From Sphingobacteriales bacterium (GTDB lineage Bacteria > Bacteroidota > Bacteroidia > Sphingobacteriales > Sphingobacteriaceae): a stretch of DNA of 64,000 nt. Of this stretch, positions 54,599 to 61,437 are shown piece by piece. A model generated the notes under the pieces. It searched no databases. It was not told the origin of the DNA and saw nothing but the letters and a program-made list of their open reading frames with translations. The DNA lies in the NCBI GenBank assembly GCA_038204935.1, contig JBBRCI010000002.1:24888-88887 (forward strand). Direction: 5' to 3'. The translations under genes and the position numbers were made by a program. Every line of letters starts with the position of its first letter. Positions within the stretch are counted from its first letter, which is position 1.

Positions 54599-55069
54599 TT
54601 AGTGAAGCTGAACTCGTTCATGTTTGGAACTTTTATCAATTAGTTTAGCAACGGCAGCCGCAATTAATCCGCCAACCAAATAATATCCAACCGTCATAAT
54701 TTGGGTTTTATGAGTTTTATTGGTGGGTTTAGATTTTAATCCCAATTGTTTCGGGGCAATTACAGAACCAAATCCTCCTGTAATTCCTAAAATTAAACCT
54801 TTAGAAAGTGCCTTTTTAACGCCCCCTTTTCCGCCGGCCATACTAAAAAACATAGCGTTGCTTAGCAAATCCCCAACCAGTGAATACTTATACAAAGCTT
54901 TCTTGTCAGGAACTTTCTGATCTGTTTTTTCTAATCCGGTAGCTAACGCATCCATAGCCAAATGGTCCATTCTCGGAGCATCCGGATCATATTGTTTTAT
55001 TATTTCATGAAGCAGAGTTACCGCAATTGCACCTGCTAAACCACCTGCTAATGAGGATAAAACTTTCAT
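54599..55069 (-). CDS. Gly/Ala-rich hypothetical membrane protein
   Basis: LAGGLAGAIAVTLLHE, APRMD, GDLLSN, APKQLGL and YYLVGGL; three or four hydrophobic helices. Confidence 0.7.
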   Translation of the reverse strand: MKVLSSLAGGLAGAIAVTLLHEIIKQYDPDAPRMDHLAMDALATGLEKTDQKVPDKKALYKYSLVGDLLSNAMFFSMAGGKGGVKKALSKGLILGITGGFGSVIAPKQLGLKSKPTNKTHKTQIMTVGYYLVGGLIAAAVAKLIDKSSKHERVQLH

Positions 55070-55186: not shown

Positions 55187-56515
55187 TTAATTTTTGTTAC
55201 TTATAATGCTTTCGGGGAAAATTAAAGTAAATCTGGTAGAAACTCCGGGCTCAGAAAATGCAGAAATCTCTATCTGATGATAATCTGCTATACTTTTAAC
55301 TATTGATAAGCCAAGACCATAACCAGAAGTTTCTCCGCCGCCAACTTTTCTGAAGCGATTAAATATAGCATCGATATCTTCTTTGGCAATTCCAATTCCC
55401 GTATCCTCAACAATTAACTGATAGGGATTTCCTCTTTCTTCCCGAATGAAAATTCGGCCATTATCTTTATTATACTTTATAGCATTATTTACAAGATTGT
55501 AAATGAGTTGAAAAATTAAATCCCGGTTAATGTTTTTCCAATTTGTTGCAGCATCAATATCAATGTTAAATGTAATATTTCGCTCCTCCATTCGATGCGA
55601 TATTTCCCCTTCAACAGAATTAAAAAGATCTTTTACGTTGTAAGTTTCCGATCGTGCAAACTGAGCGTTCTCAATTCTTGAAATCAGCAAAAGCGAACGA
55701 ACAATTTTCTTTAATCTGTTTAAAGTTCGCTGCATGTCAATCAACCTTTCCTGCAACAATTCATCTAATTGAGAATCGTCCATTAAATTCTCAATCTTAT
55801 TTTGCAATATGCTAATAGGCGTCATTAATTCATGTGATGCATTTGCGGTAAATTCTCTTTCTTTTTCAAAGGCATCATGAATTTGATCCATCAATAAAAT
55901 CAATGAATTATCAAGATATTTAAAATCAGAAGTGGACGTTTTAACGGGTGGAATGTTATCCCGAAAAGGAAATTTTCGGTTTAATAATTTACTCTTAATA
56001 ATTTTACCCAGAGGCTGTAAAAGAAATCGGGTAAACACCAGATCCGTAATTAATGTTAAAATAATTAGCGTTATTAATACGTAAGATGCAATGCGTTGCA
56101 GAGGTTTATTATACTGACTAATTGTTGCGGTGCTTTTGCCTATTTCGAGTAAATATTGCTGATTATTGGTTTTAAAAGAATGCATTAACAATCTGTATTT
56201 TAAAGTATCAGCTTCAATTATACGCTGTGAATTTTCTATAGTATCAATCAGAAAATTTTCATCTATTGCCTCAAGGGCGATGTATTCCTCTTTCAAAAGG
56301 GTATAACTTCCGTAAGATTCCGCTCCTTGCAAATAATAATCAATCCCGTTTTTTTTAATTACTTCAAGTACTTTTTGCTTTTGTTGTATGAGATAATTAT
56401 TAGTGTATTCTGAAGCGATTTGTTCAACCAGAAAAGGCAAACTCAAAACAAATAATAAAACAATTATCAATTTTGAGGAAGTAATGAAAAGAGTGAGTTT
56501 GGTTAATAATTTCAC
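55187..56515 (-). CDS. Sensor histidine kinase (periplasmic sensor, HisKA, HATPase)
   Basis: Two TM helices, FTANASHELMTP (H box), NLVNNAIKY, DTGIGI and GYGLGLSIV. Confidence 0.93.
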   Translation of the reverse strand: MKLLTKLTLFITSSKLIIVLLFVLSLPFLVEQIASEYTNNYLIQQKQKVLEVIKKNGIDYYLQGAESYGSYTLLKEEYIALEAIDENFLIDTIENSQRIIEADTLKYRLLMHSFKTNNQQYLLEIGKSTATISQYNKPLQRIASYVLITLIILTLITDLVFTRFLLQPLGKIIKSKLLNRKFPFRDNIPPVKTSTSDFKYLDNSLILLMDQIHDAFEKEREFTANASHELMTPISILQNKIENLMDDSQLDELLQERLIDMQRTLNRLKKIVRSLLLISRIENAQFARSETYNVKDLFNSVEGEISHRMEERNITFNIDIDAATNWKNINRDLIFQLIYNLVNNAIKYNKDNGRIFIREERGNPYQLIVEDTGIGIAKEDIDAIFNRFRKVGGGETSGYGLGLSIVKSIADYHQIEISAFSEPGVSTRFTLIFPESIISNKN

Positions 56516-57192
56516 GATTGTTTTTTGACCTTATAACCAACACCGCGTACTGTTTCAAGCCAATCTACTGTTGCAAATTTTCCTAATTTTTTGCGGATGT
56601 TTTTAATATGCACATCAATGTAATTTGAGTCGCAATCATCATCAGAAAAGCTTCCCCAAATATGTTCACTTAATTGCATTCTGGATAAAACACGATTTTT
56701 ATGCAGCAGCATGTAACTTAAAAGATCAAATTCTTTTCGTGTTAACTCTACTTCATTATTTGCATTAGAAACTGTTCGTTTTTGCAGGTCAATTTCAAAT
56801 TCTCCTATTGGGATACTTTCGTTTTTTATGCCAAATTTACGTCGTGCAATTGCATGCATTCTCGAGTGTAATTCCGGAAGTGAAAATGGTTTAGGAAGAT
56901 AATCATCGGCACCTAAATCAAGACCTTTTATACGATCTTCAATATTTCCTCTGGCAGTTAGAATTACATATGCAGCATCCGGATTTAGCTTCTTTGCTTT
57001 TTCAAGTAAAATCAAGCCATCTGTATCGGGTAAACCCAAATCCAAAAGAATAAAATCGTAAAGATTCAAGTCAAGCATTTCTAATGCTTTTTTACCGTTG
57101 TGAGCTAAATCGCAAAGGTAAAAAGCTTTTTTAAGAAAGGCTTCCACTTCAAATGCCAGTGTTTTTTCGTCTTCAATAATCAGTACTTTCAA
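56512..57192 (-). CDS. OmpR-family response regulator
   Basis: LIIEDE, LLDLGLPD, GADDYLPKPF, LTRKEFDLL and ETVRGVGY. TTG start; stop overlaps the HK start. Confidence 0.95.
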   Translation of the reverse strand: MKVLIIEDEKTLAFEVEAFLKKAFYLCDLAHNGKKALEMLDLNLYDFILLDLGLPDTDGLILLEKAKKLNPDAAYVILTARGNIEDRIKGLDLGADDYLPKPFSLPELHSRMHAIARRKFGIKNESIPIGEFEIDLQKRTVSNANNEVELTRKEFDLLSYMLLHKNRVLSRMQLSEHIWGSFSDDDCDSNYIDVHIKNIRKKLGKFATVDWLETVRGVGYKVKKQS

Positions 57193-57201
57193 AACATTGT
57201 T

Positions 57202-58032
57202 TTAAAACATGTAATAAAAACTCAAGTTAAAAATAGAAACCGGTTTATTGCTTGCTTCTACTACATTTTTGTTGGCTAAACTAGCTTGGTAACTAGCTTC
57301 AATAGTATAATTGGAACGATTATATGCAAGAGGTAAAGTAAATGTATATGCCAGCACATCAAAACTGGTAGATACTACAGTTGTAGTAGTTGGCTCAGGC
57401 TGCTGACCCGGAAATAACGGATCTAACAATTTTTTCCTTTTCTTTTGTTCTGTAGTATAAGTTTCATAAAAATGTTGTGTTCCGGCAGAAACCGTAATTC
57501 CGGGCTCAATTGATATAAAATCTTTTTCTTTATTAATACTGCCAATGCTGATCAATTTTGAATTTGTAAAGGATAAAAATGCATCGCTTTGCGTACCAAA
57601 TGCATAATTACCACTTAAATTACTCTTAAATATATGATCAAATGTTAAATCTGCATTCAGATTATTTTCATTTGCAGTTTGTAAAAGCGGTGAATTTGCC
57701 TGGAAGAAAGATCTGGAATAACTCATACTTCCATCCAAATTTTTAGCCAGATTAAATCCATAACCTGCAGAAAGATCTACCGATGCTATACCATCTGAAC
57801 TATTCAACAATTTTAAAGCGCTTGCAGAAATATAAAAACCGCTTTTAAGTTTATAAGCTCCGTATGATAAAACATAAGGCAATTTCTCTGCGGTTGTTTG
57901 TCCGTAATAATTAACTGTGTTTCCATAAATGGCAGCTAATGTTAAAGATGCTTTAGCGCTTGAATCTTGTTGGGCAAAAACAGACGTAGAAAGTCCGCAA
58001 CATATAAGTAGTGTTGTGTAAAGTTGTTTCAT
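57202..58032 (-). CDS. Probable outer-membrane beta-barrel protein, hypothetical
   Basis: Signal peptide, alternating amphipathic strands rich in Y/F/S, C-terminal FNLSFYYMF BAM-type signal. Confidence 0.7.
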   Translation of the reverse strand: MKQLYTTLLICCGLSTSVFAQQDSSAKASLTLAAIYGNTVNYYGQTTAEKLPYVLSYGAYKLKSGFYISASALKLLNSSDGIASVDLSAGYGFNLAKNLDGSMSYSRSFFQANSPLLQTANENNLNADLTFDHIFKSNLSGNYAFGTQSDAFLSFTNSKLISIGSINKEKDFISIEPGITVSAGTQHFYETYTTEQKKRKKLLDPLFPGQQPEPTTTTVVSTSFDVLAYTFTLPLAYNRSNYTIEASYQASLANKNVVEASNKPVSIFNLSFYYMF

Positions 58033-58054
58033 ACGGGTTATACTGAAATTCGGT

Positions 58055-58393
58055 TTAGAGGGTTTTGCGAATTAAACCTATCGGACGTTTAATTATTGGT
58101 TTAATTTTTACTGGGGTTTTAATTTTAATCTTTGCACCTACGGCAACTGGTTTAACCTGACGACGGGATTTTGGAACTTCTTTTATTTCCGGTTTTTTGG
58201 GATCTTCTTTTTTGTCTTCTCTTTTTTTCTCTACATCCTTTGGCTTTTTCTGAGTAGAATCTATCGGAGTAAAAGTGGTTAAAGAAGCATATTTTTTTAG
58301 TTCAATTTTGGAATTTTTAGCTGATGCCAGAAAAGGCAAAAGTAAACTCCAAAAGGAAATAAATAAGATGCGGAAAATTGTGTTGTTGTTCAT
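58055..58393 (-). CDS. Small secreted Lys/Pro-rich protein
   Basis: Signal peptide ending ASA, low-complexity K/E region and a repeated PVKIKPII-type tail. Confidence 0.6.
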   Translation of the reverse strand: MNNNTIFRILFISFWSLLLPFLASAKNSKIELKKYASLTTFTPIDSTQKKPKDVEKKREDKKEDPKKPEIKEVPKSRRQVKPVAVGAKIKIKTPVKIKPIIKRPIGLIRKTL

Positions 58394-58412
58394 TATCAAT
58401 GCAAATTAAAGA

Positions 58413-58440
58413 AAGTTTGCCTCCTTACAGAGGCAAACTT
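58413..58440 (-). terminator. Rho-independent terminator after the 58471-59079 gene
   Basis: 11-bp stem AAGTTTGCCTC / GAGGCAAACTT with a 6-nt loop, followed by TCTTT on the minus strand. Confidence 0.75.
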
Positions 58441-58470
58441 CTAAAAAAAAACTATATATATGGAAGCCGA

Positions 58471-59079
58471 TTAATGATTGCCAAGTCCAAGGCCGGCGGA
58501 ACCGTGAACTTTTGCCCCAACTTTAGGGCGGCTAAGTTTAACATCTGCACCAGCTTTGGCGCCGGTTTTAACTTTTACAGGACGATTAGCTTTATCGGCC
58601 TTTCTGCTTGCTTTTGCACTTGCTCTGGCTTCTGCAGAAATTACTTTCCCTTCTTTATCTTTACGTTCTGCTTTCAGCTCCTCTTTTTCTTCACGAGCTT
58701 TGTCTTTAACTTCATTGATATTTTCTTTACGAACTTCAATTTCAGATTTTACTTCTGCAGAATGCTCCTCTTTGCGCATTTCAGCATCAGATTTTACTCC
58801 GTCCACAAATTCTCTTTGATCTTGTTTTCTAGCTTCACGCTCTGCTTTTGCAGCAGTTTTTAATTGTTGGCGCTCTTCTGCTGTTTTATTTTTTCTGTGT
58901 AATGATGCCTGAGATTTTGATGAAGCTGTTGCGCTTACATCAGAACCTTTAGCATGCGCTTCAGTTTGTGTTTTAGCTTTAGAACTTACTGTTGTTCCGT
59001 GTTCGTTTTTTTCGGTTGTCTGTGAAAATGCTGAGGCTGTAAATAATAATGCGGCAGCGGCTAATAGTGTAGTCTTCAT
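58471..59079 (-). CDS. Secreted low-complexity K/E/A-rich protein
   Basis: Signal peptide ending AFSQ, repeated G-x-x-(V/I)-S-x-x-A motif, charged helical core and basic tail. Confidence 0.75.
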   Translation of the reverse strand: MKTTLLAAAALLFTASAFSQTTEKNEHGTTVSSKAKTQTEAHAKGSDVSATASSKSQASLHRKNKTAEERQQLKTAAKAEREARKQDQREFVDGVKSDAEMRKEEHSAEVKSEIEVRKENINEVKDKAREEKEELKAERKDKEGKVISAEARASAKASRKADKANRPVKVKTGAKAGADVKLSRPKVGAKVHGSAGLGLGNH

Positions 59080-59124
59080 GATTCTATGTTTTAGTTTTGT
59101 TTCGTTTAATTGTTATTACTGATA

Positions 59125-59158
59125 CAAATTTGTTGGGGAAAGATGAAGACAAGATGAA
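59125..59158 (-). promoter_or_regulatory. Tandem direct-repeat operator (OmpR-type) plus weak -7 box
   Basis: Minus strand TTCATCTT-gtc-TTCATCTT (59158-59151 and 59147-59140, 11-bp period), then CAAATTTG at 59132-59125. Confidence 0.55.
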
Positions 59159-59333
59159 TTTTTGAAATTATTTTAAAATAAAATTAATTTACTTGTATTT
59201 AGCTGACTTATTTTTGGTTGAAAATTACGTAATCATCGTTTAATCATTAATATACGGAACGAAATAAACTGTATCGCTTCCATAGTAAATCCCTGTTAAA
59301 TTCATTATCTTGAAAGATTAATGGTTTGCAATT

Positions 59334-60626
59334 ATGAAGAAACTTGTTTTTTTTTCATTTCTGATCCTGTTTTTTTCGATTAATTCATATTCGCAATCTG
59401 TTGTGAGTATGAAAATTGATGGTACGATAAATCCTTTAACATCTTCCTTTATTCATGATGGTATTCAGAAAGCTGTTAATGAAAAAGCAGAATGTCTGAT
59501 CATTCATTTAAATACGCCCGGAGGATTATTAAAATCAACACGCATTATTGTGAGTGATATTTTAAGTTCTGAGGTTCCGGTTGTAGTTTATGTTTCTCCC
59601 GAAGGCGCACATGCTGGCTCTGCGGGAGTTTTTATTACACTCGCAGCAAATATTGCGGCAATGGCTCCTGGAACAAATATTGGCGCTGCTCATCCGGTTA
59701 ATCTGCAAGGTCAGTCAGATTCTGTTATGAATACCAAATCAACCAATGATGCGGCCGCATTCATTAGAAGTATCGCTCAAAAACGTAATCGTAATTTAGA
59801 ATGGGCAGAAGATGCCGTACGAAATAGTATTTCAATTACAGCCAAAGAAGCTTTGGAAAAAAACGTGGTGGATTTGATGGCAAATTCTGAAACAGATCTT
59901 CTGAACAAGATAAACGGAAAAACAGTTTCGTTAAATTCCGGCAATAAAACTCTTAATACCCGCAATGCAAAAATTGTTAATTATGAAATGACAACTTCAG
60001 AAAAAGTATTAGATATGCTTAGCGATCCAAATATTGCTTACATTTTAATGCTTATAGGTATGTACGGAATTATTTTTGAGCTTTTCAATCCAGGAGCTAT
60101 TTTTCCTGGCGTAGTGGGCGTAATCAGTATTATTGTTGCATTTTATTCTTTACACACACTTCCGGTAAATTACGCAGGCGTGTTGCTTCTTGTATTTTCA
60201 CTTGTATTATTTATTCTGGAAATCAAAATTGTAAGTCATGGCTTGCTTTCGCTCGGCGGAGTTATCTCAATGGTCCTGGGTTCACTCATGCTATTTAAAA
60301 CCAGTTCATCCCTTGAGTTTTTTCGGATATCCACCAGCTTGATAATTATATGCACCTTATTTAGTACCTTATTTTTTCTTTTCATCATTACGTTAGGATT
60401 AAAAGCACAACAAAAAAAACCGGTTACGGGTGAAGAAGGAATTATTGGTGAAACAGGAGAAAGTCTCAGTATTTTGGATCCCAATGGAAATGTAAGGGTA
60501 CATGGCGAAATCTGGAATGCAGAATCGCTTACTGGCATTATTGAAAAAGGAGAAAGAATTAAAGTGGTTGCTATCCGCGATTTAAAATTATTTGTAGATA
60601 AACTTAAAAGCTCGTCCTCAACCTGA
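59334..60626 (+). CDS. nfeD: NfeD long form (ClpP-like protease, TM and OB domains)
   Basis: [36 protein letters not shown] and VHGEIWNA. Confidence 0.92.
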
Positions 60627-60666
60627 TAAAATTTTTAATAAACATCTTAATTTAAAACTCACTATT

Positions 60667-61437
60667 ATGCAGCAAATTCCTTTCACCTTTATCATTCTGG
60701 CATTTTTAGCGATCCTATTTTTGTCGAGCGCAATTAAGATTCTTCGTGAATACGAACGTGGCGTAATTTTTAGATTAGGACGTGTTTTAGGCGGAGGCGC
60801 TAAAGGTCCGGGAATAATTTTACTAATTCCTTTTATCGATAAAATGGTAAAAGTTAGTTTAAGGACTGTGGTAATGGATGTACCACCGCAGGATGTTATT
60901 ACAAGTGATAACGTTTCTATAAAGGTAAATGCGGTTATTTATTTCAGGGTTATTCATCCCGAAAAAGCAATTATAGAAGTAGAGAATTTCCTGATGGCTA
61001 CTTCTCAATTTTCGCAAACCACATTAAGAAGCGTCTTAGGGCAGTCTGAACTGGATGATCTTTTATCTCAACGTGAAAAAATTAACCATAGGCTGCAACA
61101 AATTATTGATACCAATACTGAACCCTGGGGAATAAAGGTTTCTACAGTGGAGGTTAAACAAATTGATTTACCGCAGGAAATGCAACGGGCAATGGCCAAG
61201 CAGGCAGAAGCAGAACGGGAAAGAAGATCGAAAGTTATTTCTGCGGAAGGTGAGTTTCAGGCTTCGCAGCGATTAGCTGATGCAGCTAAAATATTAGATG
61301 AGCAGCCAAGCGCTCTTACATTAAGGTATTTACAAACATTGAGAGAAATAGCCACAGAGAACAACTCTACAACTATTTTCCCTATTCCTGTTGACCTTTT
61401 AACGCCATTCATGCAGAGTTTGAAAGAAAAGAAATAG
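60667..61437 (+). CDS. Stomatin-like SPFH (slipin) protein
   Basis: [45 protein letters not shown] and LRYLQTL. Confidence 0.93.

Follow-up and report, generated by a model that had tools for sequence, protein, structure and literature searches.

A conserved tandem-repeat box and a probably autoregulated envelope two-component operon in Daejeonella and related Bacteroidota

We describe a five-gene operon, A to E, in a 64,000-nucleotide stretch of contig JBBRCI010000002.1 (assembly GCA_038204935.1; hereafter the window, whose numbering is used throughout) from the genome of a soil or freshwater Daejeonella (Sphingobacteriaceae; 3.03 Mb, 36.6% G+C). The operon encodes two secreted proteins, A and B, an outer-membrane barrel, C, an OmpR/PhoB-family response regulator, D, and a membrane histidine kinase, E. 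Its promoter carries a tandem repeat, and the repeat, its geometry and the recognition helix of the regulator are conserved as a set in about 70 loci and in three paralogous modules. A preliminary description of the stretch had pointed to the repeat as a regulatory site tied to the local two-component system, and this conservation bears the idea out. We regard the whole as a genuine and conserved two-component module of the envelope, probably autoregulated and apparently undescribed, in which a well-defined regulator box is joined by three accessory proteins outside any known family; our literature searches returned no publication describing the module, the box, or the families of A, B and the barrel. 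Our overall reading, a positively autoregulated cell-envelope two-component operon, is one that we consider probable.

The five genes follow one another head to tail, all on the minus strand, within 59158–55187. Nine nucleotides separate the stop codon of the barrel gene from the start of gene D, and genes D and E overlap by 4 nt. The preliminary description had reported this layout, with five co-oriented genes of which the last three are spaced by 9 nt or overlap, together with a promoter made of a perfect tandem repeat of one-helical-turn period and a −7 element. We found both the layout and the promoter as described.

The promoter box and its conservation

At 59140–59158 on the minus strand, the tandem direct repeat TTCATCTT-gtc-TTCATCTT is exact, with an 11-bp period, and is the predicted site of the local regulator. 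It is followed at 59125–59132 (minus strand) by CAAATTTG, read from the sequence as a near match to TAnnTTTG, the −7 consensus of Bacteroides promoters; 11 nt separate the end of the box from the TTTG. The box occupies roughly −38 to −20. In the 3.03-Mb genome the exact box is unique, allowing up to one mismatch, and the degenerate form TTCATNTT-N3-TTCATNTT occurs once, against about 0.2 occurrences expected from base composition. By our own estimate, however, the chance of meeting any 8-mer tandem in any promoter of a 64-kb window is of the order of 0.4. Rarity within one genome is weak alone, so the significance of the box rests on its conservation across genomes, which is very strong.

A profile search with the barrel yielded 80 loci, from Sphingobacteriaceae (Daejeonella, Pedobacter, Pelobium, Albibacterium, Pararcticibacter and others) and Chitinophagaceae (Flavihumibacter, Ginsengibacter and Hanamia). 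Allowing at most one mismatch and a distance of up to 300 nt 5′ of the first gene of the unit, TTCATnTT-N3-TTCATnTT was present at 69 of the 73 testable loci; the remaining four had 2-mismatch boxes or a mis-called open reading frame (ORF) start. The rest of the same loci gave a background of only 4 matches per 1.37 Mb. The bases at +12 to +15 past the box read TTTG in 57 of 71 boxes and TTTA in a further 11, which places 68 of 71 at the exact 11-nt offset. Box and −7 element are rigidly phased, while the intervening bases are free to vary. The loci are phylogenetically related and these counts overstate the number of independent observations. As the flanking bases and the A and B proteins diverge, we attribute the conservation of the box to selection and not to recent common descent.

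Three classes of promoter recur among the loci. The box precedes A in 36 loci, including the window, and precedes B in 37 loci where A is absent; in the third class, a second, divergent box promoter stands about 45 nt away, in 33 of the loci without A. This divergent operon encodes a lipoprotein of the DUF4382 family and a protein of about 175 residues without a family, and it replaces A in roughly half of the loci. Where A is present, a single box stands 5′ of it, with no second box before B. A −33 TTTG is not consistently present across the three classes, and in the alignments we could read no conserved −33 element in the spacer or flanks. Because such an element is not conserved across the classes, we read the promoters as activator-dependent and the operon as positively autoregulated. 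The repeat had been proposed to lie where an activator of the PhoB/OmpR type would stand in for the −33 element, and this geometry is kept across the loci.

Two further features of these promoters were seen. An A/T-rich stretch immediately 5′ of the box (59159–59180, minus strand; consensus ttttaAAataaTtt.aAAAa) is partly conserved in the alignment of A-type promoters and could be a UP-like element. Two loci have a further box, likewise followed by a TTTG, some 90 nt 5′ of the usual one (L004, 3770–3788; L006, 360–378), giving tandem box promoters before A.

The barrel, regulator and kinase genes are adjacent in all loci with sufficient sequence, and a B-like ORF lies directly 5′ of the barrel in all 77 loci with sequence there. 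Synteny of all five genes held in part: B, regulator and kinase form a constant core, but one paralogous module lacks the barrel, and about half of the loci have the divergent box-driven operon in place of A. In Flavihumibacter soli R14 (L005), barrel and regulator are 64% and 81% identical to those of the window, and the barrel is 43–45% identical to other Flavihumibacter barrels; this closeness to the Daejeonella type suggests horizontal transfer or a mislabelled genome.

The regulator, the kinase and the extent of the regulon

Gene D (56512–57192, minus strand, TTG start) encodes a receiver domain and a winged helix typical of the OmpR/PhoB family, with matches to PF00072 (Response_reg, 84.6 bits, residues 3–112) and PF00486 (Trans_reg_C, 84.6 bits, residues 146–221). 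The receiver residues, the phospho-acceptor aspartate among them, can be read from the sequence as E7-D8-E9, D51 within LLDLGLPD, T79 and K101. Among NCBIfam models the best are PmrA, RppA, a heavy-metal type and PhoB, and D misses the curated cut-off of every one; the first, PmrA (NF007928), scores 195.1 bits against a cut-off of 330, which makes D PmrA-like and not a PmrA orthologue. DrrD, PrrA and BasR are among its closest relatives in the PDB; PmrA/BasR binds tandem repeats (entries 4S04 and 8JO2). The predicted recognition helix, SNYID(V/A)HIKNIRKKL, is near-invariant across the 80 module regulators, even in a paralogue that is no more than 55% identical. The six other OmpR-type regulators of the window genome have different helices and are at most 42% identical. 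This joint conservation of box and helix is the strongest support, short of experiment, for binding of D to the box, and we infer that D would bind these direct repeats, spaced by one helical turn.

Gene E (55187–56515, minus strand, GTG start) encodes a class I sensor kinase with HisKA (PF00512, 42.6 bits) and HATPase_c (PF02518, 82.1 bits) domains. Hydrophobic, probably transmembrane, segments near residues 3–36 and 138–169 enclose a periplasmic domain of about 110 residues (roughly 31–142), which is mildly acidic (15 D/E versus 12 K/R) and for which sequence searches found no relative in the PDB. The NCBIfam model for PorY (NF052314) matches the kinase over its full length with 232.4 bits, without reaching its cut-off of 350. 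Metal stress had been suggested as a possible cue for the system. For A, B, the barrel and the sensor of the kinase, searches of Pfam, NCBIfam and the PDB revealed no metal-related domain or motif, and the suggestion finds no support. A structural match of the barrel to PcoB does not revive it, PcoB being a single generic barrel among the many matches found by Foldseek.

We scanned five whole genomes for the composite pattern of box, 11 nt and TTTG, with a reversed pattern as control. The window genome, D. oryzae and F. solisilvae contained one site each, F. soli two and Pedobacter nyackensis five, and the reversed pattern gave none in any of the five. A single composite site in the window genome indicates that the regulon is self-contained, at least apparently, in keeping with the earlier notion of a self-contained module. 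The operon thus appears to be the only convincing target of the regulator in this genome.

The five sites found in P. nyackensis are divided among three paralogous modules, on three contigs (L019, L082 and L083), which have the box and the recognition helix in common. One type comprises B, barrel, regulator and kinase with a divergent operon; another, L082, comprises B, regulator and kinase without a barrel, together with a divergent gene; the last has the order A, B, barrel, regulator, kinase, with a regulator only 55% identical to that of the window. These modules raise the question of cross-talk among their regulators at the level of DNA.

We also considered one further site in the window genome. 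Near position 6108 of contig C94 (minus strand) stands a box with one mismatch, TTCATCTTAACTTCATAAT, separated by the same gap of 7 nt from a TATATTTA motif. This box is not kept in D. oryzae and is probably a chance occurrence, so we do not count it as a second member of the regulon. By eye, the cluster behind it looks to consist of genes for a thioredoxin-like and an ApbE-like protein, a small lipoprotein and a large outer-membrane barrel.

The accessory proteins and the intercistronic hairpin

Gene A (58471–59079, minus strand) encodes 202 residues that begin with a signal peptide, as read from the sequence, and continue into a Lys/Glu/Ala-rich body. As the first gene, it presumably gives the most strongly expressed product. 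AlphaFold models a single helix of about 100 residues (67–164) with block means of 70–92 in the predicted local distance difference test (pLDDT); the ends are of low confidence, and the overall predicted template-modelling score (pTM) is low, as is to be expected of an extended protein. The family is conserved at its ends, with an N-terminal motif of the type HGxxVSxxAKS and a C-terminal KLSRPxV/I, and varies in length between them. In some lineages A is only 113–123 residues long and Gly/Arg/Thr-rich; the helix is absent and only the C-terminal KISQPNI...F motif is kept. A homologue search with the full-length protein returned just 12 unnamed relatives, and one with the N-terminal region alone returned no matches.

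Gene B (58055–58393, minus strand) encodes 112 residues, beginning with a signal peptide, when counted from the ATG that its relatives share; the automated ORF call is longer and begins at a TTG at 58399. The mature part, of about 86 residues, is Lys/Pro-rich and very basic, with 27 K/R against 10 D/E. Its core motif, ...IKEVPKARKQxKP..., is followed by KP/RP repeats, and the form (K/E/Q)(V/L)P(K/R/Q)(A/S/P) occurs at 72 of the 77 loci. Neither A nor B matched a Pfam family at E ≤ 0.1, and 19 members of the A family gave no match at E ≤ 1, the CpxP/Spy/ZraP families with their LTXXQ-type helical hairpin included. Within a lineage the C-termini of A and B are alike, often with an alternating, strand-like pattern and a terminal hydrophobic or aromatic residue. 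This likeness could reflect a common docking partner.

Between A and B, a terminator scan detected a hairpin, GTTTGCCTC-loop-GAGGCAAAC, with a T-rich tract (58412–58441, minus strand), which we interpret as a terminator or attenuator. Its 13-bp stem contains 5 G-C pairs and is followed by CTTTAATTTG, features of an intrinsic terminator, and RNAfold gives about −19 kcal/mol for the A–B intergenic stretch. The terminator anticipated after the first gene is therefore present, and it is conserved in related loci. Across the 28 loci in which the hairpin is conserved, 5 of 11 pairs are changed on both sides with pairing retained, and the loop varies from 4 to 7 nt. The GTTTGCCTC/GAGGCAAAC sequence itself is retained between genera, despite A proteins that are only 35–57% identical; Chitinophagaceae have a different hairpin at the same position. 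As the loop length varies and the pairs covary, a DNA operator is an unlikely explanation. The hairpin is unique in the window genome, and its single copy rules out a genome-wide repeat. A search of Rfam assigned it to no family and gave one sub-threshold, terminator-like match only.

The hairpin nearly fills the spacer of about 80 nt between A and B. As the sole box lies 5′ of A, with none before B, and the spacer is taken up by the hairpin, B, C, D and E are probably expressed by read-through. The hairpin would then probably pass on part of the transcription, yielding much A and little of the rest.

A second non-coding motif directly follows the stop codon of A (58453–58470, minus strand). 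It reads CGGCTTCCATATATATA in the window and GGCTTCCATCATATATA in most relatives, and is conserved across genera. A search within the operon for base-pairing targets of this motif gave only 8-mers at chance level.

Gene C (57202–58032, minus strand) encodes 276 residues with a signal peptide and the C-terminus ...FYYMF. The terminal residue, F276, is invariant in 25 homologues, as expected of an outer-membrane barrel. The AlphaFold model (pLDDT 78, pTM 0.70) is all-beta, with about 12–14 strands. Foldseek returned 163 PDB matches at E ≤ 0.001, and among the 50 listed almost all are outer-membrane barrels. Matches to FapF, the COG4313 channel, KdgM/NanC and PcoB have template-modelling (TM) scores of about 0.5 and 11–14% identity. 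The top match, FapF, reaches a TM score of only 0.50–0.52 at 14% identity, and the barrel has no extension before its first strand at residue 29.

By sequence, neither the barrel nor ten of its distant relatives fall into a Pfam family. The family has 691 representative clusters at E ≤ 0.001, and sampling of 301 Bacteroidota genomes revealed it in 18. We considered MipA in particular and rejected it at the level of Pfam, where the window protein gives no match to the family model (PF06629, threshold 24.2 bits). The same model gave three sub-threshold matches among 25 barrel homologues (best E 0.0013), no match at E ≤ 10 in the window's own genome, and none in 151 sampled Bacteroidota genomes. 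One intermediate relative, from a metagenome, retains the order B-like protein, barrel, regulator. In two of five distant homologues inspected (L085 and L087), the barrel is preceded by a secreted protein of about 216 residues with a Lys-rich tail (L085, 5169–5819; L087, 4944–5597), and the ancestral unit may have been a pair of basic-tailed secreted protein and barrel.

Two neighbours of the operon deserve mention. Immediately 3′ of the kinase gene, 54599–55069 (minus strand) encodes a 156-residue protein with hydrophobic ends and no Pfam family; it occupies the same place in L001, L002 and L006, and a homologue instead lies immediately 5′ of the A promoter in L010 and L011. Its tie to the module is loose yet recurrent. 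Divergent from the module, at 59334–61437 (plus strand), lie a gene for an NfeD-like membrane protease and then an ORF that by eye looks to be of the stomatin/SPFH type, a pair kept next to the module only in the closest relatives (L001, L002 and L007).

Proposed mechanism, alternatives and related systems

We propose that the PorY-like kinase E would sense a periplasmic or outer-membrane cue and phosphorylate D, and that phosphorylated D would bind TTCATnTT-N3-TTCATnTT as a head-to-tail dimer. Placed 11 nt 5′ of the TTTG, the bound dimer would replace the missing −33 element and recruit RNA polymerase in the manner of PhoB and PmrA at class II promoters, where a dimer of the activator, bound to a tandem repeat, stands in for the upstream element and a fixed phasing to the −7-type element is typical. 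The first product would be A, secreted and built round its long charged helix. At the hairpin most transcripts would stop, and the minority that read through would supply B, C, D and E, closing a loop of positive feedback. With the operon as the sole convincing target, A, B and C would serve as accessories of the system as well as its output. Gene content, the box and its geometry, their conservation, the covariation of the hairpin and the folds are what we observed; binding, activation and read-through, like the functions given to the three accessory proteins, are deductions. The reading of these accessories that we tentatively prefer is by analogy with MipA and OmpV, which relate in this way to ParS and CarS: B and the barrel may act as periplasmic-side co-sensors or modulators of the kinase, and A, as an abundant induced product, may be a protective or feedback factor.

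Several observations weigh against this scheme. A site that overlaps −33 could equally be used for repression. Binding of D is deduced from its co-occurrence with the box, read-through across a 13-bp terminator is assumed, and a weak TAATTTG-like motif immediately 5′ of B could be a separate promoter. As for the co-sensor role, Pfam does not place the barrel with MipA, and the P. nyackensis module L082 does without a barrel. Distant barrel homologues in other families (25–30% identity) are accompanied by neither a two-component system nor the box, and the barrel may for this reason be an effector rather than a sensor.

We weighed other roles for the secreted proteins. A, or B, may act in the manner of CpxP, binding the sensor domain of the kinase and holding it off until stress titrates or degrades the inhibitor, a model that we rate as a minority possibility to be taken seriously. 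The best-placed gene of an autoregulated envelope system here encodes a secreted basic helical protein, as do cpxP, spy and zraP; the periplasmic domain of the kinase has the mild acidity noted above; and B stays with the regulator and kinase even in the absence of the barrel. Against the model, A and B match no Pfam family, those of CpxP/Spy type included, and the A helix is very variable in length among orthologues and missing from the versions of 113–123 residues.

Alternatively, the barrel could be an export channel for A, B or both, comparable to FapF or CsgG for amyloid subunits, with the two-component system merely regulating a surface-protein pathway. FapF is the best structural match, A and B end in conserved strand-like motifs that often finish in an aromatic or hydrophobic residue, and distant barrels without a two-component system are still preceded by a basic-tailed secreted protein. 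The structural scores nonetheless amount to generic barrel similarity, and the barrel, starting at residue 29, appears to lack the N-terminal coiled coil and plug region of FapF. One paralogous module has B and no barrel, and A is missing from about half of the loci. On balance we think export unlikely.

Repression by the local regulator would reverse the logic of the promoter: D would bind the box and block RNA polymerase until a signal removed it. A protein bound at roughly −38 to −20 could hinder the polymerase, and the spacer of the window box includes CTTG, a three-of-four match to the −33 TTTG. Three promoter classes without a conserved −33 look activator-dependent, however, and the fixed phasing to the −7 element is that of class II activation of the PhoB/PmrA type, which together make repression improbable.

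We also entertained a bolder pair of ideas, to which jointly we assign little probability. In the first, A, B and the barrel would form a physical signalling link of an undescribed kind from the outer to the inner membrane. The A helix, at about 100 residues (~15 nm), would span much of the periplasm; its strand-like C-terminal motif would attach to the barrel or else to the assembly machinery, and its N-terminal motif would contact the kinase. If this were true, the system would report outer-membrane integrity or envelope spacing. In the second, cleavage of the A transcript would release a small RNA resembling CpxQ, with the hairpin at its 3′ end.

Finally, that some other factor reads the repeat, be it one of the six further OmpR-type regulators of the genome or an alternative sigma factor, is very improbable, since the box tracks this two-component system through about 70 loci, two families and three paralogues and is almost absent elsewhere, the adjacent regulator keeps its recognition helix along with the box, and the module has no linked sigma factor gene.

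Compared with known systems, the positively autoregulated operon that we favour is closest at its promoter to those of PhoB (pho box) and PmrA/BasR, in which tandem direct repeats of 11-bp period take the place of the upstream promoter element and stand at a fixed distance from the downstream one. It also resembles these systems in pairing a receiver with a winged helix in its regulator, and in the probable autoregulation of its operon. It differs in its half-site, TTCATnTT, in a promoter of the Bacteroidota −33/−7 kind rather than −35/−10, in a regulator that falls under every equivalog cut-off, and in a regulon that apparently consists of its own operon only.

In the Cpx system, cpxP is the most induced member of the regulon and encodes a periplasmic feedback inhibitor, and its 3′ untranslated region yields the small RNA CpxQ. 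Here too the best-placed target is the gene for a secreted basic helical protein followed by a hairpin, whose sequence in our module is conserved to an unusual degree. By sequence and by family, however, A is unrelated to CpxP, and its gene lies upstream of those for the regulator and kinase in one operon. The kinase in turn recalls PorY, of the PorXY system that regulates type IX secretion, whose family model covers it from end to end, sensor region included, although below the cut-off. PorX is an orphan regulator outside the OmpR class (PMC8050853), whereas the partner of our kinase is an adjacent DNA-binding regulator of the OmpR type.

In its combination of parts, the module is best compared with two proteobacterial arrangements in which a PmrA-like system is coupled to a barrel that it induces and to an envelope protein: carRS-ompV-virK of V. 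cholerae, where the envelope protein is VirK (PMC12012098), and ParRS with mipBA of P. aeruginosa (PMC10936184). Their barrels have been proposed to act as co-sensors that bind polymyxin and aid activation of the kinase (PMC12012098, PMC10936184). Like CarRS-OmpV and ParRS-MipAB, the module joins a PmrA-like system to an outer-membrane barrel and a further envelope protein, with self-induction, which is predicted here. Unlike them, it belongs to another phylum, its barrel lies outside the MipA/OmpV family, and a Lys/Pro-rich peptide and a long-helix protein take the place of VirK or MipB; the link to polymyxin and efflux pumps belongs to those systems.

To our knowledge, few binding sites of response regulators have been defined in Bacteroidota, a phylum whose −33/−7 promoters depart from the textbook kind. 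With its sharp box, invariant phasing to the −7 element, matched recognition helix and apparently one-operon regulon, the module offers a clean model for how activators of the OmpR type work on the Bacteroidota RNA polymerase. It contributes two protein families that Pfam does not match, that of the Lys/Pro-rich secreted peptide and that of the secreted protein with the long helix. The recently recognised association between a two-component system and an outer-membrane barrel (ParRS-MipA, CarRS-OmpV) is extended by it to a further phylum, in which the barrel is an unrelated one. If the barrel and the peptide do prove to be co-sensors, this would be a case of convergent evolution of outer-membrane sensing.

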